Positions 5,432 to 54,494 of a DNA stretch of 64,000 bases are shown one piece after another. Position 1 is the first letter of the stretch. Every line of letters starts with the position of its first letter. Source of the stretch: an uncultured Candidatus Saccharibacteria bacterium (lineage in GTDB: Bacteria; Patescibacteriota; Doudnabacteria; UBA920; O2-02-FULL-48-8); assembly GCA_964605735.1 (NCBI GenBank), contig CAZSDS010000001.1, forward strand, positions 480,126-544,125, given 5' to 3'. Position numbers and translations under genes: made by a program. The notes under the pieces are model-generated. The model did not search any database and was not told where the DNA came from. It saw only the letters and a program-made list of their open reading frames with translations.

Positions 5432-6613
5432 ATGAAAATACTTTTCAACGGATACAATTTCGAAAGGAAGGGCAAACAGCTTCATTACGGAGGCCCTCGG
5501 AACTTCACAAAAAGACTGCTCAATTTCCTGGATAAAACCCCTCACAGTTATATCAGCTTGGTGATTGAAGGGAAAAAGGAAAAAAATGAGCGTTACTCCC
5601 TTTCAAAGTCCGCCAGAGGAAAAGGAATTTTTCTGAAACTTAGGCTGAGACTGAATACCCCTGATGTTTTTCTCGCAAAAAGCAAAGCCATGCCTGCCAG
5701 CCTCAACACGCCCATTAAAATCATCGGTAAAATAATCAGCGAGCAAAACCCTGACGCTGTCCTGCTCAATGGATACTCCATAGTCAACTGGATGATCCTG
5801 AGAGCGTGTAAAAATCACGGCATTCCGGTTGCAGTCTGCCATCACGGTTTGTGGTTTAAGGAAATCCAGGACGCATCCAGCAAAGTCACCAAAGCGGCAA
5901 TCCATATTATGCGCGAAATGGAAAAGGACGCCGCTAGGTTCGCAGACAAGGAAATTTTTCTAAACGAATTCAGCAAAAAAGAATTCAACCAAAAACTGGT
6001 AAAAACAGACGAATCTCGAACAACAATCATCCCGCTCCCGTACAACGATGTTTTTCACAAACCGGTAAAGCGACGCCCTGGCACTGAAGTAAAAATCGGC
6101 TTCGTGGGAAGATGGGACCCCATCAAAGACCCGCTCGCCTATTTAAAGCTTGCTGAATACGCTAAAAAGGCCGGACTACCCTGGCAATTCAGCGCGGTTA
6201 TGAAAATTTACGCCGAATACCCGGCGCTTCTCGCAAAAAAAGATGCCTTCCTTCAGACAATCCAGACCATCGAGCAGATGAAACCTGAAAAACTGCGGCA
6301 CTACTATGCGGAGCAAAGCCTGCTGGTAATGCCGTCGAGGTTTGACGTTTCCCCCACAGTGGTAATGGAATCTCTCCTCCAAAATACTGGAACATTGGTT
6401 TCGCCAAACGTAGGCTGGTCCACACTCTACAGGAAACTAGGCGCAGAAAAATGGATAATTGACTTCAAAGATCCGAAAAAAGTGGCAGACAGGATCAAAT
6501 ACTTATTGAAAGCAAAACCCCCAACCAAACTAATCAAATACATTAGAACCAACCACAGTCCGAGAAAAGTTTTCAGCGAGTATATCAAAGTATTAAGATC
6601 AATCCAGAAATGA
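5432..6613 (+). CDS. glycosyltransferase, GT4-like
   Basis: C-terminal half has KIGFVGRWDPIKDP ... LLVMPSRFDVSPTVVMESL, resembling the GT4 E-x7-E region. Stop overlaps the next GT gene (ATGA). Confidence 0.65.
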   Translation: MKILFNGYNFERKGKQLHYGGPRNFTKRLLNFLDKTPHSYISLVIEGKKEKNERYSLSKSARGKGIFLKLRLRLNTPDVFLAKSKAMPASLNTPIKIIGKIISEQNPDAVLLNGYSIVNWMILRACKNHGIPVAVCHHGLWFKEIQDASSKVTKAAIHIMREMEKDAARFADKEIFLNEFSKKEFNQKLVKTDESRTTIIPLPYNDVFHKPVKRRPGTEVKIGFVGRWDPIKDPLAYLKLAEYAKKAGLPWQFSAVMKIYAEYPALLAKKDAFLQTIQTIEQMKPEKLRHYYAEQSLLVMPSRFDVSPTVVMESLLQNTGTLVSPNVGWSTLYRKLGAEKWIIDFKDPKKVADRIKYLLKAKPPTKLIKYIRTNHSPRKVFSEYIKVLRSIQK

Positions 6614-7665
6614 GAATAGCACAATTAGTTTCAAACCTGCACCGTGTTCACCTGGCGTCCAACCAGGCAATTTACTCCCACACAGCCCGCTTGACCAACG
6701 GTTTAATTCGCCGCGGCAATGATGTGACGCTTTTTGCCTCCGGGGATTCAGAAAGCCAGGCCAAGCTTTATTCCGTCATAGAAAAAAATACGCACGCCTT
6801 GGGATTGGATCCGGACGACACCAGAAACTATAACCAATTGCTAATCTCAAAATGCTACGAAAACGCGGCAAATTTCGATATTATCCACTCTCATTACAGT
6901 TTATTAACCTCCTATTTCACTGCTCTGACCCGCACGCCTACAGCCCACTCCTTCCACAGTCCGATCCTGGAAAGGCAAAAACCTCTGCTCAGGCATTATA
7001 AGGACAAAAACTATATCTCTTTCTCGCTTGCGCAAAGAAAACAAATGCCTGAATTGAACTGGATAGCCAACATTTACCACGGCATAGACACGGAATACTT
7101 TGCTTATAATGACAAGCCAGAAGATTATTTGCTCTATCTTGGCAGAATAACGGAAGAAAAAGGCGTGCACTTTGCCATTGAGGCTGCCCGGGCTGCCAAT
7201 CTCAACCTTGTAATCGCCGGCCGTTCCTACCCAACCGAAAACTACTGGCATAACTATATCGAAAAATTCGTGGACGGGAAGACCGTCAACTACGTGGGAG
7301 AGGCTAATCTTGAAACCAAGCTCGGCTATCTGCAAAATGCCAAAGCCTTGCTATTTCCTACCCAATATGATGAAGTTTTTGGCCTGGTCATGGCAGAAGC
7401 CATGTCTTGCGGAACCCCAGTCATTGCCTGGAATAAAGGCTCGGTTCCTGAAATTGTCCAGGACGGCCACACCGGCTACATCATCAAAGACGTAAACGGC
7501 ATGGTCAAAGCCATACAAAACATAGATAAAATCAGCAGGCAGGAGTGCCGCAAACGCGCCGAATTGTTCTTCTCCATCGAGAAAATGGTTACCGGATATG
7601 AAAAAGTCTATATGCGAATAATCGAAGAAAACACTGCCAGACTGAAGAGCCAAAAAAATCCCTAA
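6610..7665 (+). CDS. glycosyltransferase family 4
   Basis: VTLFASGDS, LYLGRITEEKGVHFAIEAA, PTQYDEVFGLVMAEAMSCGTPVIAWNKGSVPEIV form a classic GT4 (RfaB-like) signature. Confidence 0.85.
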   Translation: MRIAQLVSNLHRVHLASNQAIYSHTARLTNGLIRRGNDVTLFASGDSESQAKLYSVIEKNTHALGLDPDDTRNYNQLLISKCYENAANFDIIHSHYSLLTSYFTALTRTPTAHSFHSPILERQKPLLRHYKDKNYISFSLAQRKQMPELNWIANIYHGIDTEYFAYNDKPEDYLLYLGRITEEKGVHFAIEAARAANLNLVIAGRSYPTENYWHNYIEKFVDGKTVNYVGEANLETKLGYLQNAKALLFPTQYDEVFGLVMAEAMSCGTPVIAWNKGSVPEIVQDGHTGYIIKDVNGMVKAIQNIDKISRQECRKRAELFFSIEKMVTGYEKVYMRIIEENTARLKSQKNP

Positions 7666-7677
7666 CGGGATTTTTTT
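7649..7677. terminator. bidirectional intrinsic terminator between convergent GT4 and GT2 genes
   Basis: Hairpin aaatccc-taac-gggattt flanked by A-run and T-run. Confidence 0.5.
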
Positions 7678-8405
7678 GTTAACAGCTTGCTGTAAAGTTG
7701 GGTGTAGTACGCCCGTTCCAGATCATAAGTGCCACTGCTGCGGTCAATTTTGTTCATTTGATCAGGATGAACCCGGTAAAGGCTGAGGTAAGAATCGATC
7801 AAATACAATTTTACCTTCTTGCTGGCGAGTTTCAGCCACATGTCAAAATCTTGCGTGCGAAGTTTAGGGTTCCAATACCCTGACTTCTCCACCGCCTCCT
7901 TTCGTAATGTCACTGTGCCATTTGGAATAAAGCACCTGTGCCATAAGCTGAAGAAAAGATCATGCTTCGGTTCATAATTGATGTTGTACTCCTTCAAGTC
8001 ATCAAAAAGCCGGTTATTCACGTCAATATACAAGAGTCGACCATAAGACCATAGCGCCTTAGCGCTCTGTTTATGGAAATTATAGCGAATCTGCAGGCTG
8101 GATAGCGGCAACATGTCATCGTCATCCAGAGGAACTATCAAATCTCCTTTTGCCCTTTTATATCCCACATTCAAAGCATCGCCTGCCCCCCAATTTCTTC
8201 GATTTTTTACGTATTTTATGCGTTTGTCTTTCCGGGCAAACTCTTTGACCAGCTTCTCTGTCCGGTCTGTTGAGGCGTTATCGACTATTATGTGCTCATG
8301 GGCAAACCCAAACTCTCTTTGGTTCTGCACGCTTAGGATGGTTTGTGGCAAAAAACTGTCAGCCCTGTTATGCGTCGGGGTCAAAACTGAAATTATATTG
8401 TTCAT
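7662..8405 (-). CDS. glycosyltransferase family 2
   Basis: N-terminus ISVLTPTHNRADSFLPQTILSVQNQ...HEHIIVDNASTDRT...VPLDDDDMLP carries the GT2 DxD signature. Confidence 0.85.
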   Translation of the reverse strand: MNNIISVLTPTHNRADSFLPQTILSVQNQREFGFAHEHIIVDNASTDRTEKLVKEFARKDKRIKYVKNRRNWGAGDALNVGYKRAKGDLIVPLDDDDMLPLSSLQIRYNFHKQSAKALWSYGRLLYIDVNNRLFDDLKEYNINYEPKHDLFFSLWHRCFIPNGTVTLRKEAVEKSGYWNPKLRTQDFDMWLKLASKKVKLYLIDSYLSLYRVHPDQMNKIDRSSGTYDLERAYYTQLYSKLLTKKSR

Positions 8406-38458: not shown

Positions 38459-38923
38459 TCAAGCTTGCGGTTCAGAAAGGACTTTAATTCGGGCCAGCGC
38501 CTGAGGGAGTTTATCGTTGAAGTATTCAACCAGCTCATCAGGCACATCCTGCGTTATAGAAAGAGTAACTTTGCCATTGTTTTCTTCCAGGTCATACCTT
38601 TCCGTGCCGCCAGTCCATTGGTCGTCTCTTTTTTCTATCCCCCCGTCATCTTTAACCACAATATCCGCGATTCGGGTAAATAAAATGTGCTGGTTTGGAA
38701 CCAGTTTTTCCACCCTACTGGTCACGCCATAGCGGACTCCGCCATCGCTGTTCCCTATGAAATTAATTTCGTTACCTTCTTCCAGCTTGCCTTCCATGTA
38801 GGTGCCTTCGTCTATAAAGCCTGACCAGTCACGAAAAGTCTGGTCAGACCAAAGCACTTCCCAAACTTTCTCTTTGGGTGCGTTGATTTCTATTGAATGT
38901 TTCATCTCATTCATTTTGCTCAT
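38459..38923 (-). CDS. SRPBCC-family protein (AHSA1/polyketide-cyclase-like)
   Basis: IEINAPKEKVWEVLWSDQTFRDWSG is the Activator-of-Hsp90-ATPase/SRPBCC N-terminal pattern. Confidence 0.8.
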   Translation of the reverse strand: MSKMNEMKHSIEINAPKEKVWEVLWSDQTFRDWSGFIDEGTYMEGKLEEGNEINFIGNSDGGVRYGVTSRVEKLVPNQHILFTRIADIVVKDDGGIEKRDDQWTGGTERYDLEENNGKVTLSITQDVPDELVEYFNDKLPQALARIKVLSEPQA

Positions 38924-41662: not shown

Positions 41663-41867
41663 GTGCTAAAAAGGTTAATGGCATGTCTGTTTATTATAGT
41701 AGTTTTTCTTCTTTGCTTAAACACTTTGACTGTGGAAAAATATTTTTCCAATGTTTTTGCTTAGAAAGTTTTTCTTTTAGTACGATTCCGGTCTCAGCAG
41801 AAAAATTGGTAATGGTAAATCTAAACTTTGGATAAAACAAAAAGCACCTCTTTTGAAGAGATGCGCT

Positions 41868-41950
41868 TTGTTTGGCTCAACATCGTGAACAACGTTGGAA
41901 ACATACTTCAGAGGCAGAATCAGTATGTTTATATACCTGATTTACAATCT
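41868..41950 (-). repeat. conserved 3'-UTR element, copy a (family of three: 41868-41950, 46534-46612, 47108-47169)
   Basis: All three copies share TTGGCTC(A/C)(A/G)ATCG(G)TGGAC(A/G)A...TTAGA. Copies a and b also share CAGTAT(G/A)TTTAT(A/G)TACCTGA(T/C)TTA. Each copy sits between a minus-strand stop codon and a different terminator hairpin. Confidence 0.5.
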
Positions 41951-41960
41951 GCCCGATAAA

Positions 41961-44411
41961 TTACTTGGTAACTGTGAATACAGAACTTACTGTAAAACTC
42001 CCATCAAGATTTACTAATTGAATTTTATATTGGCCTGGTTTTACTTGAGTATCTGCTCCACCCTCAAAACTACCATTTGAATCTACAAGTTGAGCCGTCC
42101 AATATAACTGTTTAGCAGTGCTGCCAGCATATACTTGCTTCGTGCTTATATATCCCGTAAAACCGCTATTATCTGCAGGGATAAGCATCAAGTTTATTTC
42201 GCCTAACGTTGGACCGTCCCATTTAAGTAAATTGTTACCACCTTGCTTCATTGTCGTAGGGACAACAAAATTCGTAGCTTTAATGCCTGAAACATTATCG
42301 AATTTTATACTGCTTACCATTTTTAATATAGCATCTCTATCTGTTGTATTATTCCATACCACTTCTATACGCCCACAAGAAATACTAAAACTTGAATCGC
42401 ATTTAGTCCATGCAGATACTGTATCCGTAATGTAATATCTTTTCATTCCTAAGCTTCCAGAAGTCCAAGTCCTTACAGTTGCGTTTTTACCACCGACTTT
42501 TTCAGTTGATGTCGTAGGAGTTACATTTGGATTGTTTTTGAAATCAAACCCGCCTTTAGGGACTATAGCCATATAGTTTCCGTAATCAGAGGAATCTCTA
42601 CTCCATAAGTATCTGCCAGTTTGGCTTTCTAAAGCCCAATTTTTTGGTATTGATACCTGATAATGGTCATCAGTATTTATGAAAGGTATAGCATCCGAAG
42701 TGCCGCTTGTGGAATTAGAACTTTGAGGATTCCTGAAATCCAAAGGCTTTTTATACATATCACTTATATCACTGGAGGTAAGAGTTGCTTGATATTCTGC
42801 ATCTAGTCCTTTAATTTCCCAAATACCTAAATCTAAGCTTGATGCAATCAAATAAACTAAGGTATCTCCGTCCAGATCTGCAGCAACTGCCTTCATATCT
42901 GGAATATAACTATCTACTTTTTCAAGATTACTGGCGTGATATTTACTTGGTAAGCTCTGAAGAGCTTTAAATATGCGGTCTTGTCCAGCCACAGTAGAAT
43001 CGTCTGTTTTTCTATTCCAAGCAGGGTCATCAATCATAGTTAATTCAACCCTGGCCTTACCAGCCTTTTCAATATATAAAAACAATTTATCCAGATGACC
43101 TTCTAACCGCCCTTTGCACCAAATATCGTTAGGGTCATTTATGAAATCCAATAATTCTGTTGACAGTAATCCATCCTCATCTTTCAGAACAGCATAAGTG
43201 TATCCTTCCCCGCCTAATTGTGCCAGTCCAGTATTTTTGGTATCTAATACCTCTACAATCTCGAATTTCATATCTGAACGGACATAATTCACGTTATAGT
43301 ATTTATCTTTATAACGATGTGCCCCAACTGAATCAATATCACTTATACAAGACAAGTATCGATTAATTTCTTGAGCTCTTGGTGCATTCGAAGCGACTAA
43401 GTTATCTTGTTCATAAGCCATCGGTATACCAAGTGTTATAATTTTGCCGACATTAGGGTCATTCTTTTGAACTTGGTCTTTTGTTCCGCTATTAACAACA
43501 AAATAAATCGGCCATCCAACCAGTAACACTAAACCTATCCCGATAACAATTGAGGTATATTTCCAAATTTTCTTTTTTCGAATTTGTTCTGGAGTAAGCT
43601 CAGGTGCTGCTGGGACTGGAATTGATTGGCTAGGATTATTCGGGTCAACCATCATCGTAGGTGCAACAATCATTTGTTGTTTCAACAAGCCCCTAAAGTA
43701 AGCGTAGACTAAGGCAACTGGCCCCAAGAAAGGTAAGATAAAAAAGAATGGAAGGAAAAGTATAAATAAATTGAACGCTGCAATTTGAGAAGAGAAAGAA
43801 CCCGAAGTAAATGAAAGTGAAGTAAGTATTCTAAACAGCTCGACAACTACGACAAACAAACCCGTCCAAACTACTAATAAAGAACGGCTCCATTTTTTCC
43901 AGAAATAAAACAGTATCAAAAGCGAAATAACAAAATCTGTGAACGACAAAATTTTAGTTACCAAAGCTTGTCCTAGAAAAACTCTACTTAATATGCCATT
44001 AGCAATGTAATAAACCAAATAAGCATTCCCGATAGTAACCAAAATTAAAACGATTATCTTTTCAATACTTTCTAGTAATCTAGGCTTCGGTTGATTTATT
44101 TCGATTGGTTCTGGATTTTTTCTATATTTTATATAGTAAGCAATACATCCAATTATATAACCATATATAAGCTGCCCCAATAAAGGAGTTAAAAACAATG
44201 TTAACAATCCACCCTTCTTAAACAAAAGAGCGGCTCCTACGCCGCTCCAAAAGAAACCCCCAACAAAAGCTTGGACAATTATACTTGAAACTATATTACC
44301 TTTAGGTAGAACCGCTGCTAAAGAAAACCCAACTATCATTAAGATAATTGCAGTTGCAAAAGCCCAAGCTATCCTGTGTTTGGTTGGCTTAAAGGCTTGT
44401 TTTATTGTCAT
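41961..44411 (-). CDS. large polytopic membrane protein (816 aa) with C-terminal extracytoplasmic domain; hypothetical
   Basis: About 10 N-terminal TM helices, then a ~500-aa soluble region. No recognised domain. Confidence 0.7.
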   Translation of the reverse strand: MTIKQAFKPTKHRIAWAFATAIILMIVGFSLAAVLPKGNIVSSIIVQAFVGGFFWSGVGAALLFKKGGLLTLFLTPLLGQLIYGYIIGCIAYYIKYRKNPEPIEINQPKPRLLESIEKIIVLILVTIGNAYLVYYIANGILSRVFLGQALVTKILSFTDFVISLLILFYFWKKWSRSLLVVWTGLFVVVVELFRILTSLSFTSGSFSSQIAAFNLFILFLPFFFILPFLGPVALVYAYFRGLLKQQMIVAPTMMVDPNNPSQSIPVPAAPELTPEQIRKKKIWKYTSIVIGIGLVLLVGWPIYFVVNSGTKDQVQKNDPNVGKIITLGIPMAYEQDNLVASNAPRAQEINRYLSCISDIDSVGAHRYKDKYYNVNYVRSDMKFEIVEVLDTKNTGLAQLGGEGYTYAVLKDEDGLLSTELLDFINDPNDIWCKGRLEGHLDKLFLYIEKAGKARVELTMIDDPAWNRKTDDSTVAGQDRIFKALQSLPSKYHASNLEKVDSYIPDMKAVAADLDGDTLVYLIASSLDLGIWEIKGLDAEYQATLTSSDISDMYKKPLDFRNPQSSNSTSGTSDAIPFINTDDHYQVSIPKNWALESQTGRYLWSRDSSDYGNYMAIVPKGGFDFKNNPNVTPTTSTEKVGGKNATVRTWTSGSLGMKRYYITDTVSAWTKCDSSFSISCGRIEVVWNNTTDRDAILKMVSSIKFDNVSGIKATNFVVPTTMKQGGNNLLKWDGPTLGEINLMLIPADNSGFTGYISTKQVYAGSTAKQLYWTAQLVDSNGSFEGGADTQVKPGQYKIQLVNLDGSFTVSSVFTVTK

Positions 44412-44650
44412 TTTGTTTCATTGTAATTTAATGATGCCTTTTGCTCATTCTAGCGGAAAACTGAGCAGAACGCTAGTTGGAACTAACCGAGAAAACTTTT
44501 GAGTTAGCTACTTACGCCACAAAGTATTTATTACTACCAAAGGTAAAGAAGGGTTAGAACTCAAGAAAGAAATTCTATTGGCTTTAGGTCCAACCCCAAT
44601 AGTAATAAACAAAGAACCAACCATTGAACCGAATGAATGGTTTGTTCCTA

Positions 44651-44845
44651 TCATACTCCATATCTGACCCCACTATCACTGTTCCCTATGAAGTTGACCT
44701 CGTTACCCTCTTTCAATTCACCATCCATATATGTTCCTGGATCAATAATACTAGACCAGTCCCGGAAAGTCGTATCACTCCAAAGCACTTCCCACACTTT
44801 TTCTCTAGAAGCGTTTATTTCAATAGAATGTTGCATTTTATTCAT
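44651..44845 (-). pseudogene. truncated paralogue of the SRPBCC gene at 38459..38923 (first ~64 codons only)
   Basis: Translation MNKMQHSIEINASREKVWEVLWSDTTFRDWS...NFIGNSDSGVRYGV is ~75% identical to the N-terminus of the full gene. Nucleotide identity includes 14-15-mers. The reading frame ends with a stop where the full gene continues. Confidence 0.6.
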
Positions 44846-44861
44846 ACACTAATGATACACT

Positions 44862-45494
44862 TTAGAATAGATTGTCCGCTACGGATCTCAACCATGCTTT
44901 CGAGTACTCAACATCCTGCCTGGTCAACCCATGTCCTGCAGCTATTTTTTTAACTTCAGCGTCAGCTCCTTTAGCAGTCAATGCTTTGGTTAACTTATCC
45001 GTGTCTTCAGACCCTACCATTTCATCCATTAGTCCTGACAATATTAAAACTTTTGTTTGAGTCAACGGTGGCATTTTTTTGGACAAAGCCTCAGACATGG
45101 GCCTGAAAAGAATACCCATTTTCAAAACCTCTGGTTTGTCAGTCATCAAATGAAGAGCAATATTGGCTCCATTGGAATAACCTACGGCAACAAGGCCGTT
45201 TAGGCTAAACCCGTAAGTTTTTGAACTTTCGACGATAAAATTTGCAAGCTCGTTTGAACGTTTCTCTAAATCCTTAAAATCAAATACACCTGGTGACAGC
45301 CTTTTGAAAAACCTTGGCATGCCATCTTCTATAACTTGCCCTCGCGGACTGAGGATGTTAGCACTAAAATCTAAGTCCTCACCCAATGGGACCAAGTCAT
45401 GTTCGTTTCCACCCGTGCCGTGCAGCAACAATAAAGTCAGTGGACTTTTTTTATCTATATAGATATGTTCGAAACCTTGAATCGCTTTATTCAT
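44862..45494 (-). CDS. phospholipase/carboxylesterase-family alpha/beta hydrolase
   Basis: LLLLHGTGGNEHDL and GYSNGANIALHLM (GxSxG) are typical of PF02230-like esterases. Confidence 0.8.
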   Translation of the reverse strand: MNKAIQGFEHIYIDKKSPLTLLLLHGTGGNEHDLVPLGEDLDFSANILSPRGQVIEDGMPRFFKRLSPGVFDFKDLEKRSNELANFIVESSKTYGFSLNGLVAVGYSNGANIALHLMTDKPEVLKMGILFRPMSEALSKKMPPLTQTKVLILSGLMDEMVGSEDTDKLTKALTAKGADAEVKKIAAGHGLTRQDVEYSKAWLRSVADNLF

Positions 45495-46440
45495 TTTTAG
45501 GCAATATCAATTTAGGCAAAACTTTTTCTATTTCACTACGATGCGGTTCATACAGTGGTGTTAGGCTTAAGGATGTGCCTAGTTTTTCTTCCGGCTCGTC
45601 TATGGTGAACCCTGGACCATCTGTAGCTATTTCGAACAACACTCCACCCGGTTCATGAAAATAAATTGATTGAAAATATGTTCTGTCTATGATCGGTGAA
45701 ACGTTTGCTCCAATGCCGGATAATTTTTTGTGCCATTGCTCTTGCACCGTACCATCCTTAACCCGAAAAGCCACATGGTGGATAATTCCTGTGCCCATGC
45801 TGCCGGGAAAAAAATCAGGAGCCTCTCTAACATCTATGAAAGTACCCAAACCACTTTCCGGCAAAGAATACCTGTAGGTATTTTCGGTTTGCCCTAGCAG
45901 TTGATACCCCATCATTTCACGAAGAAACTTGTCCGTATCCTCAAAGCCATCTTCTAATAAAGTAACCGAATAAAAACCTCGGATAGCGTGCTCTGTTGGG
46001 ACGCCGTAACCGGCAAAAACTTTTTTATTCACGGTTTTATTGTCAGCCACAAGTTCAAGCAATATATCATCCGGGTCCCTAAAACTTATATAGTTATCAA
46101 TAAACCTGGTACCCTTATTTTTTTCAAATGGGATACCCTTAGCAGTAAGTCGCCCGATCCAAAATTCCATTGAGCTCTCGGGAATTGAGAAGGAAATAGT
46201 AAATGCCTGGTTAACACCCTTTTGACCTTTCCTGCCACCTTCCCAAGCAAAAAAAGTTAAAGCCGTGCCAGGAGAGCCCACTGAATCACCAAAATACAAA
46301 TGATAAGTGCCAGGATCATCCTGGTTTACAGACAATTTTACAAACTTCAAGCCTAAAACCTGTGTGTAGAAGTCTATATTACGTTGCGCGTTATTTGTTA
46401 TGGCTGTTATATGATGCAAACCTAAAATTGTGTCTTTCAT
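45487..46440 (-). CDS. two-domain VOC-family ring-cleaving dioxygenase-like protein (MhqO/YfiE-like)
   Basis: LGLHHITAITNNAQRNIDFYTQVLGLKFVK plus a second VOC module (HHVAFRV...). Glyoxalase/extradiol-dioxygenase fold. Confidence 0.75.
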   Translation of the reverse strand: MKDTILGLHHITAITNNAQRNIDFYTQVLGLKFVKLSVNQDDPGTYHLYFGDSVGSPGTALTFFAWEGGRKGQKGVNQAFTISFSIPESSMEFWIGRLTAKGIPFEKNKGTRFIDNYISFRDPDDILLELVADNKTVNKKVFAGYGVPTEHAIRGFYSVTLLEDGFEDTDKFLREMMGYQLLGQTENTYRYSLPESGLGTFIDVREAPDFFPGSMGTGIIHHVAFRVKDGTVQEQWHKKLSGIGANVSPIIDRTYFQSIYFHEPGGVLFEIATDGPGFTIDEPEEKLGTSLSLTPLYEPHRSEIEKVLPKLILPKNE

Positions 46441-46533
46441 ATACTCATGAGTATACCCCTGGTTTTAATAAAAATGAAGCAATATTTTTCTCTAAAATAA
46501 AAAAACGTCCGACCACAAGGGTCAGACATTTTT

Positions 46534-46612
46534 CTTTGGCTCAACATCGGTGGACAATGTTAGAGCTAATATCCAAAACAAGAACAGTATATTTATGTAC
46601 CTGACTTAAGTA
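46534..46612 (-). repeat. conserved 3'-UTR element, copy b
   Basis: See copy a. Followed, in the direction of transcription, by terminator hairpin gacc-acaag-ggtc plus a T/A run at ~46500-46535. Confidence 0.5.
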
Positions 46613-46615
46613 ATG

Positions 46616-46900
46616 TTAACCAAAGTATCCCGCACTAAACAGAGATAAAAATGCAAATATTGCTAATAAAACAACTATTGTCCAAAGCACATATCTTAGC
46701 AAGTTATTCTTACCAGTGTTTTGAATACCTGAAGAGAAAAATCCAATTATAGTAAGGGTTGGAATAAGCACAAAGGCTCCGAAAAATGCATAAGGCGAAA
46801 GTAATGAATGAACAATAAATTGAATTCGAGAACAAGTGCTAAGTACTAGAAGTCCATAAGTAGTTATTGGTGCATTTCCCTGAATAAGACGTAATTCCAA
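46616..46900 (-). CDS. small hydrophobic membrane protein; adjacent overlapping ORF 46839..47045 suggests a possible frameshifted single gene
   Basis: Two overlapping minus-strand ORFs, both hydrophobic, overlapping by ~60 nt in different frames. Confidence 0.35.
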   Translation of the reverse strand: MELRLIQGNAPITTYGLLVLSTCSRIQFIVHSLLSPYAFFGAFVLIPTLTIIGFFSSGIQNTGKNNLLRYVLWTIVVLLAIFAFLSLFSAGYFG

Positions 46901-47107
46901 TTACAACACATACAACTAACAATAGGACAAGATATGTCATAAAACCTTTTACAAAACCATCAAATAACCTGTTTTCTGAAGATGGTTTCTGGGAAACTGG
47001 ATTGTCTATGTTTGTTTCCATATATTTTTTCTTTAGCGTAAGCATATCACAGGCATAATTCTAGCGTCCACACACTTGAACAAAAAACACCAATAAACAT
47101 TGGTGTC

Positions 47108-47169
47108 CTTTGTTGGCTCCGAATCGTGGACGATATTAGAACGTACTATATGCAAATAGGTAGTGCGTC
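47108..47169 (-). repeat. conserved 3'-UTR element, copy c
   Basis: See copy a. Followed by the perfect hairpin caccaat-aaac-attggtg with an A-run and T-rich flank at ~47047-47100. Confidence 0.5.
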
Positions 47170-48477
47170 TTATTCTGGAATGCTTTGATCTTGTGAAGGA
47201 ATATCCTCCCATTCTCCTTTATCATTTTTTCTCCTATTCATAACTTCGGGAGGAAAACGGGTCCACTTACCTTTCTTACCTCTAACCATTCGTTTTATTA
47301 CAATGTGTCTAGCTTGATCAGAATCAAGAATGTTATTAGGTTCTGGCGCACTTTTTGCCTGTCGTTCAAACTCCCGAATTTTATTCATAAGTTCTTCGGA
47401 TGCTTTTGTCTTTGGAGGAGGTCCATCATTCAATTTTCTTTGTCTCCAATCTTTTGCCATGTATTTGTCCCATAAACCACAAATCATGAATGAACCATCT
47501 TGCGGCGGAAACATAGCAAAACTTGAAACGCCTTTTGCTTTGGTCTCATCAGATAACGCATTGTAATGTTGATCTAATGCTTTAAGGTCAGCTTTAAGAT
47601 CAGGGCCAGCAATGAAGGTTTGATCATCACGGACAAAATACGGGGCAACCTGCTGATGTAATTTATCACTCGAAGTAAATACCTTGCAGAATGGCAAGTA
47701 ATAAAGATAGGCCATGTCAATTTTATGGCTCTGTCGACCTCTTCCAATCAAATCAGAGGCAATGGCAAGATAAAAAAACATATCAACCGACAAAACATAA
47801 GCAAAGTAAGGCGCAAACTTTCTAATGGGTGGCGTTCCTAAATTTTTCCAGCGTTCTAATACAAGTTTTTGAGAATGAAAAGGAATACCAATTAGCCACA
47901 TTCCAAATACCAGCATGTGTTCTTTATTTGGTCCATCAATAAGTCCATCAGTTAAAGACTTAATCTCGCTTAAATTTTTAGGTTTGCCGGAGTTAAAAAA
48001 TTGCTGAAATAAAAGATATTTATCTTCAAGATTGATATTGGATAAAGCCGCTCGCCATCCTTTTGCGTGCAAGCGCTCAATTTCCATAAAATCTCCATCT
48101 TGCCATCTTTCAAAGGCTTCTTCCTCGGGCGACTGCTCAAACATAATTCCATAGCCTTCCTCTGTTTCTACATGCTTGCCACCACCGATTATTGGTCGAC
48201 CACTCATTTCAACATTCCCTTGGCCGGTCAATTCTCCGGCCAAAAGTGTCTGATGATGGACACCCGGCCGCGCACTCATATCAGGAGTTTTGTAAGCAAG
48301 GCTTCCTACAACTTCTTCTGGTTTTCGTCCAGACTTAATTTCTTTTTCCAGATCAGCAAGGGTCTCAATGAAAAATAATGGAGTAATGTTGCTATTGAAA
48401 AAATTATCAAGCCACATTGCTTCGTCAGGATTCAAACTTTGAAGAAATGATTTATCAAAAATTAGACTTGGACCCAT
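47170..48477 (-). CDS. hypothetical protein (435 aa), third gene of a tightly coupled three-gene operon
   Basis: Start is 1 nt after the upstream gene's stop. No recognisable motifs. Low-GC composition. Confidence 0.6.
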   Translation of the reverse strand: MGPSLIFDKSFLQSLNPDEAMWLDNFFNSNITPLFFIETLADLEKEIKSGRKPEEVVGSLAYKTPDMSARPGVHHQTLLAGELTGQGNVEMSGRPIIGGGKHVETEEGYGIMFEQSPEEEAFERWQDGDFMEIERLHAKGWRAALSNINLEDKYLLFQQFFNSGKPKNLSEIKSLTDGLIDGPNKEHMLVFGMWLIGIPFHSQKLVLERWKNLGTPPIRKFAPYFAYVLSVDMFFYLAIASDLIGRGRQSHKIDMAYLYYLPFCKVFTSSDKLHQQVAPYFVRDDQTFIAGPDLKADLKALDQHYNALSDETKAKGVSSFAMFPPQDGSFMICGLWDKYMAKDWRQRKLNDGPPPKTKASEELMNKIREFERQAKSAPEPNNILDSDQARHIVIKRMVRGKKGKWTRFPPEVMNRRKNDKGEWEDIPSQDQSIPE

Positions 48478-48478
48478 A

Positions 48479-49228
48479 TCACGGGATCTCCTTTTGCAGA
48501 TATCTGCTTAAAATACGTTTTCCATGTTCTTCCGGAATATGTATAACTCGCAATTCCCCGGATTCACTAATTGCTGCCTCTATGACCCACGGACGCATGG
48601 AAGAAGTTAACGGAGATATTACAAAGATGTAAAGCATTCCGCTAATTAGGAAATTATATCCAATAACGCCGGATTCCATTCTGATTTTTTTAGGTTCTGA
48701 AATTAGCTCCTTGGGCAATGAAGCGTGTTTAGTATAACTGTTGATTATACAAGGAAAAAGATCACTTGGTCCGGGATCCTCTTCCACCAACATTTTACGA
48801 ACTACTTCTTCGTATTTTCCAAGTGATACTAAACCAAAGAATGGTCGTTTTGAAATACTTGCCCTCCATAGTATGGACAATAGAAACAGTTTGAACTTTT
48901 TGTAATCAATTCCAGTCGCAAATGTAAACTCTACTCCATGTTGATTCTTTTGATTCTCAAATCTGATATTGACGCCTTTTGGGAGTTTCCCACCGTAGAG
49001 AATAAGTCTTCCATAGGTTTCGAACTTACTTAATTTCGCCTCACAATCCCTGCAGAGAATCCCAGCTTCGAATTCGCCTGTATGAAGTTTCCTCTCCTTA
49101 TCCCAATCATCCGATTTGAATCTAATTAAGCTATGGTTTTCATCGAAAATATCAGAATACATAAAATCAGGAATGATATGGGACTTGTTAACTAATTGTT
49201 TATCGCAAAGACAAAGTTTACAAATCAT
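48479..49228 (-). CDS. HNH-like nuclease-motif protein (249 aa), second gene of the three-gene operon
   Basis: N-terminus CKLCLCDKQLVNKSHIIPDF...DENH...CRDCEAKL has a Cys pair, His, Asn/His and a second Cys pair arranged like an HNH/zinc-finger nuclease motif. Start overlaps the upstream gene stop by 4 nt. Confidence 0.55.
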   Translation of the reverse strand: MICKLCLCDKQLVNKSHIIPDFMYSDIFDENHSLIRFKSDDWDKERKLHTGEFEAGILCRDCEAKLSKFETYGRLILYGGKLPKGVNIRFENQKNQHGVEFTFATGIDYKKFKLFLLSILWRASISKRPFFGLVSLGKYEEVVRKMLVEEDPGPSDLFPCIINSYTKHASLPKELISEPKKIRMESGVIGYNFLISGMLYIFVISPLTSSMRPWVIEAAISESGELRVIHIPEEHGKRILSRYLQKEIP

Positions 49229-50844
49229 AATAATCGCTCCTGTTCTTCTGACATCGGGACTTGCAGATCGTCTTTGTAGAATTCCTTAAATTTTTTATCC
49301 AAGAAGTTCGGAGAGGGTTTTAGGTTATTCTCCTTAAACGCTTTTGATATTTCAGCAGATACTCCGGAAGCCGGATTTTGATTTGCCCTTTTTGCTACTT
49401 CGTCAATCTCGATATAGTCTTTGACGTAGTAGTAGTTTTCTAATTCTTCCACGGAAAATAAAGTATATTCAAAGTCTTTAATCCCTGGACATTTGCTATC
49501 CATGCCTTCTAAGGCTTTTTTGATATCTTCTTGGTAGATAGTGGTTGAAACAAGCGGGATATCATAGAAAATACCTACGCAAGTTAGCTTCTTTTTTTCA
49601 AAGCCTTTTAGTTCCGGATATTTGCCAACATCCGAACACCTATCATACATTTGTTTGATAGTTTTTGTTATTTTTTCAAAAACTTCTTTCCTAATTAAAT
49701 CAGGATCTCCTGTTTGCAATGTGCCTAATGGGAACTGATAACCTTTCGCTTCAAAGAGTAAAATATTTTCATCTTTATGAACTATCCAGTCAAAAAAAGT
49801 CTTCTTATCTTTTTTTGTGCCATAAGGGATACCACGCATAACAGCACTTTCTCCATACATGTCCTTCAATACCATCCCAACATACTCTTCAAACAATAAA
49901 CCGAAGTAATCACGGAATGTTTTTCCAATTGCATTTTCGAAGATCCAATACAAGCCCCTAAATGCGCCTTTAACATAAGCGCTAATGCTCGGTGCGATAT
50001 AATCATTTACGCCCAGTTTTACAATTGGTTTTTCCCATAATGGGTTATATCGATTCTTGGTGTATTCAGGTTGTAATTTTGCATTATATTTCTGATCGAG
50101 ATTGCGTAGTTCTTCTGGACTCCCAGCAAGCAGCGCTAAGATCGCATTTACTTTTTCGTCAGTAAGAACTTCGGCTAAACCTCCTTGGATAGTTGATCCG
50201 GTAAACTTACCCATATTGAATCTTGGCGAATTCATAATCGCCGCAAAAATAGCGAACGATAATTTAACGTATTCTTGTATGCTCATACCAAATTTTTCAA
50301 AAAGGATTTTGTCCAAATTGATTTGACTGTTTATGTTAATTTGGGCTGACTGAAAAATAAGCAACTGTCGCGTAAAAGCATCTTTGATATCTTGCTGACT
50401 ACTAAACTGCTGGTATGTCATAGGGACCAGTAAAGCTGCTATCCCTTTTTTGTTTATTGGTTGGACAAGGGTGCTGAAATAGATATTAAATAATGCTAAG
50501 ACATCATCCTTATTTTTTATGCTTAAACTTTTATGGTTATTGGAGCCAGAAATGAGTAATATATTGCTAATGTATTCAATTGCGAAATCAGTAAGAAATA
50601 AGCCGGTAAGTTTGTGGATTGCAAAGCCAACCTTTTCTTTTTTAATGGCAGAATTTTCATGAAAATTATTATCAAAAAGTTTGTTTGAAATATCCCCTAA
50701 AATTGATAGCGCCTCGTCCAGCTTGTACCCTTTCAAGGCATTACAAAACTCCTCCTGAGATACTGTCAGTTCGGGCTTGTTGCATAACGCTGATAGTCTT
50801 GGTTCAGCTTCCAGAATGTATTTACCTTGTTGATCCCTGAACAT
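49225..50844 (-). CDS. hypothetical protein (539 aa), first gene of the three-gene operon; C-terminal region contains a possible PD-(D/E)xK-like motif
   Basis: FDWIVHKDENILLFEAKGYQF has D...E-x-K spacing reminiscent of a restriction-endonuclease-fold core. No P-loop found. Very AT-rich relative to flanks. Confidence 0.55.
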   Translation of the reverse strand: MFRDQQGKYILEAEPRLSALCNKPELTVSQEEFCNALKGYKLDEALSILGDISNKLFDNNFHENSAIKKEKVGFAIHKLTGLFLTDFAIEYISNILLISGSNNHKSLSIKNKDDVLALFNIYFSTLVQPINKKGIAALLVPMTYQQFSSQQDIKDAFTRQLLIFQSAQININSQINLDKILFEKFGMSIQEYVKLSFAIFAAIMNSPRFNMGKFTGSTIQGGLAEVLTDEKVNAILALLAGSPEELRNLDQKYNAKLQPEYTKNRYNPLWEKPIVKLGVNDYIAPSISAYVKGAFRGLYWIFENAIGKTFRDYFGLLFEEYVGMVLKDMYGESAVMRGIPYGTKKDKKTFFDWIVHKDENILLFEAKGYQFPLGTLQTGDPDLIRKEVFEKITKTIKQMYDRCSDVGKYPELKGFEKKKLTCVGIFYDIPLVSTTIYQEDIKKALEGMDSKCPGIKDFEYTLFSVEELENYYYVKDYIEIDEVAKRANQNPASGVSAEISKAFKENNLKPSPNFLDKKFKEFYKDDLQVPMSEEQERLL

Positions 50845-51524: not shown

Positions 51525-51818
51525 ATGCCCGGAGAAACATCAAAACTTAATGGAATGAAAGGTGGCCGGCCAAGCGGTAGCAAGGCAGCTCACACTCTTG
51601 AAGCGCAGACTCTTAGGCAATATCTAATAAGCCGAACGATTGAAGAGCATAAGCCCTTAGTTGAGGCTTTGATCCGGAAAGCAAAACGCGGAGATTTGGG
51701 TTCAATTAAAGAGGTTTTCGAAAGGGTGCTGGGCAAGGAGAAAGATCCAACCACACCGAAGATTATTGTCCAAACGCTTCAAAGAAGCATAGAGGAAGAC
51801 AGAGAAAAATACGCTTAA
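51525..51818 (+). CDS. hypothetical basic protein (97 aa) within the integrated element
   Basis: ORF. No SD, and it starts directly after the terminator-like palindrome. Confidence 0.4.
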   Translation: MPGETSKLNGMKGGRPSGSKAAHTLEAQTLRQYLISRTIEEHKPLVEALIRKAKRGDLGSIKEVFERVLGKEKDPTTPKIIVQTLQRSIEEDREKYA

Positions 51819-52310: not shown

Positions 52311-52484
52311 ATGTCGACAAATTTACAAAAGAGAGAAACGAAGCAAATTAGAATAGAAATCGGACTTCATCGTTCACTTAAAATAGCATCGGCTCAAAAC
52401 GGCAAAACAATGTCCAAGCTGCTTGATGAAATCTGTGAACAGTATTTTAAGCATGAAAACCTTAAACATGATAAAATTAAATAA
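52311..52484 (+). CDS. ribbon-helix-helix (Arc/MetJ/CopG-like) DNA-binding protein
   Basis: Internal Met start preceded by a purine/G-rich tract. KQIRIEIGLHRSLKIASAQNGKTMSKLLDEICEQYF is an RHH beta-strand plus two helices pattern. The ORF-track entry 52116..52484 probably over-extends it. Confidence 0.55.
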   Translation: MSTNLQKRETKQIRIEIGLHRSLKIASAQNGKTMSKLLDEICEQYFKHENLKHDKIK

Positions 52485-52494
52485 ATAAAGACCC

Positions 52495-54251
<1,757 letters not shown>

Positions 54252-54261
<10 letters not shown>

Positions 54262-54494
54262 ACAATTGATTTCAAAAACTCTTTGCCGTATCCACTCTTG
54301 AGCCGTTTTTCATGAATACGGGCCTCGGCTCTGGTTTTATACACTTCTGTATAAAACAAGGTCCAGGGTCTATATCCTTTCGTTGAAAAAACTTGGCCTA
54401 GGTTATGTTCTCGCAATCTACGACCTACATTGGTAGTCATACCAACATAAATTCTTCCATGTGCTTCGCTTTTTAGAGCATAGACTATGTACAT
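54252..54494 (-). CDS. GIY-YIG nuclease-superfamily small protein (80 aa)
   Basis: MYIVYALKSEAHGRIYVGMTTNVGRRLREHN is the GIY-YIG motif. Stop is 1 nt from the tRNA-Asn 5' end. A TATAAT box lies 9 nt upstream of the ATG. Confidence 0.8.

Follow-up and report, generated by a model that had tools for sequence, protein, structure and literature searches.

The three-gene block at positions 47170-50844 of a 64,000-nt stretch of contig CAZSDS010000001.1 from an uncultured Candidatus Saccharibacteria bacterium (the whole stretch is called the window here) is probably the slot in which an integrative element of ~7 kb carries variable cargo. Its nuclease-type genes, designated A, B, and C, would be separable and co-transcribed and would not form an obligate three-part machine. 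In this reading, the element has entered the 3' end of a tRNA-Asn gene of this Patescibacteria genome and carries genes for a large serine recombinase, a ribbon-helix-helix (RHH) protein, and a DUF5681 protein, together with a LOOT RNA. The block was assigned to the cargo slot of a small element family since the arrangement of LOOT, recombinase, and tRNA is shared with related loci and the cargo subsets are shuffled. Related elements carry shuffled subsets of a common pool of A, B, C, Mrr, and other genes. A, B, and C are not a conserved triad; among more than 100 related loci (numbered L001 onwards), the full A-B-C set was found in the window only.

The earlier note, which was made from the sequence alone, had described three translationally coupled open reading frames (ORFs) on the minus strand, and their coordinates and lengths were confirmed: A (539 aa) spans 49225-50844, B (249 aa) 48479-49228, and C (435 aa) 47170-48477. 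The coupling was likewise found as described. A and B overlap by 4 nt (ATGA), with an AGGAG ribosome-binding site (RBS) ~8 nt upstream of the B start, and B and C are separated by a 1-nt spacer (TGA-t-ATG), with an AAGGAG RBS preceding C. A terminator-like hairpin with a T-run lies ~60-90 nt 3' of C (47080-47110, minus strand); it was read from the sequence, and its stem was also recovered in a scan. Since the junctions are coupled and the hairpin and T-run follow C, the three genes look like one transcription unit. A sigma-70 promoter scan gave a score no better than that of shuffled sequence.

The integrated element proposed at tRNA-Asn was borne out. The large serine recombinase gene (52495-54228, plus strand; Pfam Resolvase and Recombinase) extends at its 3' end 42 nt into tRNA-Asn(GTT) (54187-54261, minus strand; ARAGORN and Rfam), which is the integration target. 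Just upstream of the recombinase, a small Omega-repressor-like RHH protein is encoded (52311-52484, plus strand; weak matches to Pfam PF07764 and PF21432), and its homologues adjoin recombinases in L017-19 and L085. The backbone also encodes a small DUF5681-like protein (51525-51818, plus strand; Pfam PF18932, E = 8.6e-5, below the gathering threshold). L029 carries counterparts of this protein (~42% identity) and of the recombinase (42% identity over the full length). LOOT (Rfam RF03000; 50934-51055, plus strand) was detected over its full length with 96.3 bits against a gathering threshold of 46.4 (E = 8e-18) and a fold z-score of -5.9. It lies divergent from A in a GC-rich spacer between the A start and the DUF5681, RHH, and recombinase genes.

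LOOT holds the same position, with the cargo on one side and a serine recombinase abutting a tRNA on the other, in at least four independent Patescibacteria elements, namely those of the window, L013 (5050-5169), L029 (5395-5513), and L110 (4748-4870), and a weak copy was found just upstream of A in L111 (2708-2818). The recombinase stands beside tRNA-Asn in L013 and L029 and beside tRNA-Glu in L110. The cargo consists of Mrr, A, and a 165-aa protein in L013 and of C and B in L029, and it includes A in L110. The distance from the tRNA to the cargo end is ~7 kb in the window, L013, and L029. Type I, II, and III restriction-modification (RM) genes, Mrr, GmrSD, AbiEii, and Vsr/Dcm were present among the cargo neighbours in related loci, which supports the defence-like setting suggested for the block. 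The element resembles serine-recombinase defence islands at tRNA genes in that the recombinase abuts the tRNA 3' end, a small regulatory module is present, and RM, Mrr, GmrSD, and Abi-type genes are overrepresented in the variable cargo. It differs from them in its very small size, its occurrence in Patescibacteria, and the LOOT RNA between backbone and cargo.

LOOT is rich in GNRA-type tetraloop hairpins. No functional description of LOOT was found in the searchable literature and supplements, and no report of an association between LOOT and such elements was found in the searchable literature. LOOT may have a regulatory role in these elements. A far attachment (att) site was sought in three ways: direct repeats gave none above chance, a search with an 18-mer of the tRNA T-arm allowing up to 3 mismatches gave no remnant above chance, and local alignments between the tRNA and the far cargo border of the window, L013, and L029 stayed at the null level. 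The missing att repeat or tRNA remnant is as expected for integration by a serine recombinase.

The distribution of the three genes was compared across these loci. For B, one genome per species was scanned, 245 genomes with B were obtained, and the best 80 loci were examined. A was present in none of these 80 loci and C in one (L029), in which the order is reversed relative to the window (C then B). Conserved co-occurrence of the three genes, which had been set beforehand as a check on the three-gene proposal, was thus not observed. No recurrent neighbour family of B was found in the 80 loci, and dnaK was the only gene seen beside B more than once. C was found alone in three independent contexts: at the end of a recombinase-methyltransferase-DEAD/ResIII series (L001), convergent with a serine recombinase (L002), and behind LexA/S24-Dcm and Vsr with AbiEii nearby (L004-9). 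Neither A nor B accompanies the C homologues in L001-L009, L100, and L101. Distant copies of C from other phyla were found amid integrase, transposase, and phage tail genes, and distant copies also occur on a Granulicella plasmid. No A homologue outside the window was accompanied by C among the loci examined. About 8 of the 12 independent A loci carry A without B (L013; L017-19/L102-104, which are one element; L105-108; L110; L112), and B follows A in the other four.

In L004-L009, the C gene (7001-8290) encodes a 100% identical protein that was present in 52 blocks of the contig collection. The upstream module of this gene is constant (a 349-aa protein, LexA/S24-Dcm methylase, and Vsr) and its downstream flanks differ, which indicates that C forms the variable edge of that island.

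Residues 128-403 of protein A matched the NCBIfam family NF047931 (antiphage_GapS1) with E = 1e-24 and 87.2 bits; the curated cutoff of this family is 320 bits. The family was matched by 34 of the 35 A-family members (best E, 1.5e-26), all of which we take to be below the cutoff, judging from the size of the E-values. On this profile evidence, A is a remote, sub-threshold homologue of GAPS1/GapS1 and, by the NCBI threshold, a non-member. D352, E365, and K367 were invariant across the 35 A-family sequences (within the motifs FFDWIV and LFEAKGYQF), and the D-to-K spacing of 15 residues equals that between D313 and K328 of GAPS1. Pfam and PADLOC gave no informative match to A, and only 39 relatives were obtained in the homology search. 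Remote stand-alone homologues were found on plasmids of Pseudomonas, Streptomyces, and Nostoc, some of them annotated as "nuclease-related domain", and the two that were tested (Pseudomonas and Streptomyces) were likewise sub-threshold GapS1-like proteins. The D…ExK motif is retained in remote plasmid homologues of this kind. When the A profile was aligned with the Pseudomonas plasmid protein using hhalign, the probability was 97.4 and the E…D…ExK residues were aligned. The invariant D…ExK, the GapS1 profile match, and the profile-profile alignment show that the PD-(D/E)xK core originally proposed for A is right.

GAPS1 is a single-protein anti-phage system of GMT islands with a C-terminal PD-(D/E)xK domain; it is triggered by a capsid protein, which leads to dormancy, and the D313A and K328A substitutions each abolish defence (Mahata et al., bioRxiv 10.1101/2023.03.28.534373). 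A and GAPS1 are alike in length (~450-540 aa), in the C-terminal location of the PD-(D/E)xK core, and in the D..ExK residues and their spacing, and both usually occur singly as mobile-island cargo (A in about 8 of its 12 independent loci). They differ in that A comes from Patescibacteria, whereas GAPS1 comes from Gamma-proteobacteria or Firmicutes, in that A is ~80 aa longer, and in that an HNH-like gene is translationally coupled to A in one third of the sampled A loci. By analogy with GAPS1, the N-terminal and helical part of A would sense a phage protein, and sensing would switch on the C-terminal nuclease (D352/E365/K367) and arrest the infected cell.

The pair A→B was found in four independent loci, namely the window, L014-16, and L121, each with a 4-nt overlap, and L120, with a 9-nt gap. 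In L014-16, L120, and L121, A belongs to clade II and the B proteins cluster at 57-62% identity; in the window pair, A is from clade I and B from a different subclade. B lies downstream in 3 of the 4 clade-II-like A loci that have downstream sequence, where L110 was assigned to its clade solely on the ~42% identity it shares with the window A. Since two A clades and two B subclades are involved, the pairing may have arisen more than once. The recurrent order and tight coupling would be expected if A and B formed an obligate two-gene system, that is, a GAPS1-like sensor-nuclease with an HNH-like partner, and if C were an unrelated neighbour. We regard such a system as unlikely, since the majority of A loci are without B, A was in none of the 80 best B loci, GAPS1 works as a single protein, and B is translationally coupled to unrelated upstream genes in L010 and L124. 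As B is coupled to unrelated genes elsewhere, the recurrence of A→B is suggestive, and not proof, of a functional link. Under the cargo-slot reading, the recurrence of B directly downstream of A in Patescibacteria indicates that B is probably an optional second nuclease riding on A expression. The genes of ~235-243 aa upstream of B in L010, L012, and L124 were considered as a partner family and rejected, as they are mutually unrelated. In L124 (Sphingomonas plasmid NZ_CP037915.1), a distant B-like gene (5956-6720; 29% identity) overlaps by 4 nt with an unrelated 243-aa upstream gene and sits in a clear defence island with Type ISP RM, AAA ATPase, DUF4238, and SbcCD-like genes.

B had been proposed to be an HNH nuclease on the basis of its CxxC...SHIIP...CxxC arrangement. 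The arrangement itself proved to be conserved: S16, H17, I18, C59, C62, E70, K113, W121, and R144 are among the invariant residues, and C3, C6, D29, and D63 reach at least 90% conservation, with Glu at position 63 in the window copy and a CxxCE likewise in distant relatives. The catalytic-type H17 lies on the first strand behind CxxC, in a region that aligned to positions 1-25 of HNH_5. When the members of the B alignment were scanned against Pfam, HNH_5 (PF14279) was matched by 16 of 64 and any other family by at most 3, so that HNH_5 was the only recurrent Pfam signal. These matches had E-values of at least 0.047, the scores printed for three members were at most 13.4 bits against a gathering threshold of 27.5, and the matched residues (~3-25) cover only positions 1-25 of the 56 in the model, corresponding to the first CxxC and the His strand. 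The window B protein itself had no Pfam match and no PADLOC match and did not reach the gathering score of an HNH family. The nuclease assignment thus stood for the motifs, fell short at the family thresholds, and found no confirmation in the fold search described below. PHROGs gave no informative match to A, B, or C; B matched two PHROGs of unknown function.

The comparison with HNH_5 and with groups 1 and 8 of the His-Me finger nucleases (Jablonska et al. 2017, PMC5714182) showed similarity in the CxxC-x10-(S)H(I)(I)P strand, which aligns with the first half of the model, and, as in zinc-stabilised HNH fingers, the second CxxC of B stands at the start of a helix with an acidic residue behind it. 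B differs from HNH_5 in that all scores are sub-gathering, a β-hairpin of ~35 residues is inserted between the motif halves ahead of the second CxxC, Asp or Glu replaces the canonical Asn or His after this CxxC, and the C-terminal domain of ~165 aa matches no known fold. A homology search returned 734 relatives, and an exhaustive profile search returned 6151 representative clusters at E≤1e-3. The best 150 of these were nearly all ~210-275 aa with one matched stretch each and no Pfam domain, and they were close relatives only, with no bridge to a bona fide HNH_5 protein. B belongs to a very large unannotated family, and its motifs and weak profile matches suggest a Cys4 zinc-finger, HNH_5-like putative His-Me protein. 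B would be a zinc-stabilised His-Me-type nuclease that is normally an autonomous stand-alone gene and that, in some Patescibacteria elements, may serve as an optional second effector expressed from the A transcript.

C had not been recognised in the earlier note. It has no Pfam or PADLOC match, and its predicted structure showed a PIN-type alpha/beta/alpha fold with VapC toxins among the best structural matches. The acidic quartet D8, E38, D254, and D271 is invariant and occupies the canonical PIN secondary-structure positions. The PIN core is interrupted by a helical insertion of ~165 aa and followed by an extension of ~145 aa, with a conserved basic tail ending in KGKWxRFPPE. The homology search returned 2195 relatives, mostly from Patescibacteria and without a Pfam domain; no Pfam PIN family matched the window C or any of 65 relatives, and no PIN match to C was found in NCBIfam or PADLOC. 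As modelled, C is an independent, split PIN-like putative nuclease with an invariant acidic quartet. Compared with the PIN-domain nucleases VapC, SMG6/EST1A, Nob1, and Utp24, it has a split core and a long extension, and it is unlike VapC in its length (435 aa vs ~130 aa) and in having no VapB-type antitoxin alongside. C would act as an autonomous nuclease, probably RNA-cleaving, in which the helical insertion could serve as a sensor or autoinhibitor gating the active site.

Searches of the PDB with single sequences and family profiles gave chance matches only. B and C had no tblastn match in phage genomes, and every plasmid match of the two was annotated as hypothetical. No P-loop ATPase domain was detected by Pfam and no match by PADLOC in A, B, or C, in agreement with the earlier view that the block is unlike Septu and Gabija.

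The genes may also be read as selfish or addiction modules instead of anti-phage defence. In that case B would be a homing-type HNH endonuclease gene standing on its own, and C would stabilise the element as a toxin-like PIN nuclease. The B genes are patchy across phyla, have no conserved neighbours, often lie directly behind the stop codon of another gene, and stand beside dnaK in two unrelated genomes; for C, VapC toxins are among the best structural matches and the gene lies at the variable edge of islands. On the other hand, no conserved antitoxin-like gene was found upstream of C in the loci examined, where the neighbours vary (B, Vsr, DEAD helicase, or tRNA), B-like genes also occur in clear defence islands such as that of the Sphingomonas plasmid with its Type ISP RM and DUF4238 genes, and the cargo found alongside is of the usual defence type (Mrr, GmrSD, RM, and AbiE). 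We therefore consider this explanation improbable. The dnaK-adjacent copies of B are in a Gammaproteobacteria metagenome-assembled genome (MAG) and a Patescibacteria MAG, on opposite sides of dnaK (L022, 5867-8741; L023, 8001-10810). This placement is reminiscent of the behaviour of free-standing homing endonucleases.

That A, B, and C form one dedicated, undescribed three-component defence system, as the earlier note had proposed, is highly improbable. The genes point the same way, are coupled in translation, and share one terminator, all three products are nuclease-like, and B and C are adjacent in L029 as well. However, outside the window C homologues occur without A and B, A homologues without C, and 79 of the 80 best B loci without C, and L029 has the reverse order, so that this reading is already largely refuted by the co-occurrence data. 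A match to an already described system and the absence of the triad from other genomes had been named beforehand as grounds for abandoning the proposal, and both were found: A is a remote homologue of the described GAPS1/GapS1, and the triad was absent from the other loci surveyed. The view that C serves in housekeeping RNA processing in Patescibacteria and lies beside A and B by chance fits its unusual conservation (55-72% identity; 61% mean column identity) and its abundance in these bacteria, and is nevertheless very hard to credit given its variable contexts with recombinases, RM genes, and integrases, the differing downstream flanks of an identical protein, and the distant copies carried by the Granulicella plasmid and by mobile regions in other phyla.

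Several points weigh against the cargo-slot reading and the assignments that go with it. The gene contexts were sampled from roughly 100 related loci and are not exhaustive. The tight coupling and the recurrence of A→B across two A clades and two B subclades fit an obligate pair. B and C are neighbours both in the window element and in the related one of L029, which makes a functional link between these two possible. A falls short of the NF047931 cutoff, with 87.2 bits vs 320. The HNH assignment of B comes from motifs and sub-threshold profile matches alone, and a fold search of the PDB with its confidently predicted structure gave no analogue and no His-Me structure. A more far-reaching proposal can be stated jointly: A→B would be a two-gene variant of the GAPS1 type with an HNH-like second effector, the B and C families would each be new single-gene anti-phage systems, and LOOT would function in the elements, for example by regulating the expression of cargo or integrase. 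We put this combination forward tentatively, as one that is rather doubtful as a whole.

The block had also been described as AT-rich compared with its flanks. Its GC content (0.375 vs 0.442 for the window) was indeed in the lowest 3% among windows of the same length; however, the left flank at 41700-47169 was as AT-rich as the block (0.374), which indicates that the low GC content is not specific to the three genes. Encoded in this flank are a multi-pass membrane protein of 816 aa that had no match in Pfam, a glyoxalase-fold protein, and a DLH-type esterase, along with two tiny membrane ORFs. The genes left of C had no counterpart in any related locus or element compared, and the AT-rich tract may be an older or separate island. 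A 191-nt direct repeat with 75% identity was found at 38724-38914 and 44655-44845. The right copy falls on a short ORF of 64 aa (44651-44845), which looks like a paralogue, cut short, of a gene near 38.8 kb. This suggests a rearrangement at the island border. On the other side of the element, a small stand-alone GIY-YIG protein is encoded immediately past tRNA-Asn (54252-54494, minus strand). Homologues of this protein were found near similar islands in L004 (8544-8828 and 8915-9146), L010 (9297-9455), and L108, and the GIY-YIG gene of L004 adjoins a group I intron (Rfam RF00028, 68 bits).

Patescibacteria, also known as the candidate phyla radiation (CPR), live as episymbionts and have tiny genomes. 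The immune systems that they carry have been charted poorly, since the standard defence catalogues were built from cultivated phyla. GAPS1-like nucleases and defence cargo on mobile elements are already known; the B and C families, the recurrent A→B arrangement, and the link between LOOT and the element are new. Judging by homology, a GAPS1-like nuclease lineage is present in CPR. Two large and wholly unannotated nuclease-like families, B and C, appear as interchangeable cargo of ~7-kb serine-recombinase elements, to which the orphan LOOT motif is physically tied. Each of these families is a candidate for a new one-gene module acting in defence or as a toxin, and the element family can be used to mine CPR genomes for more cargo.

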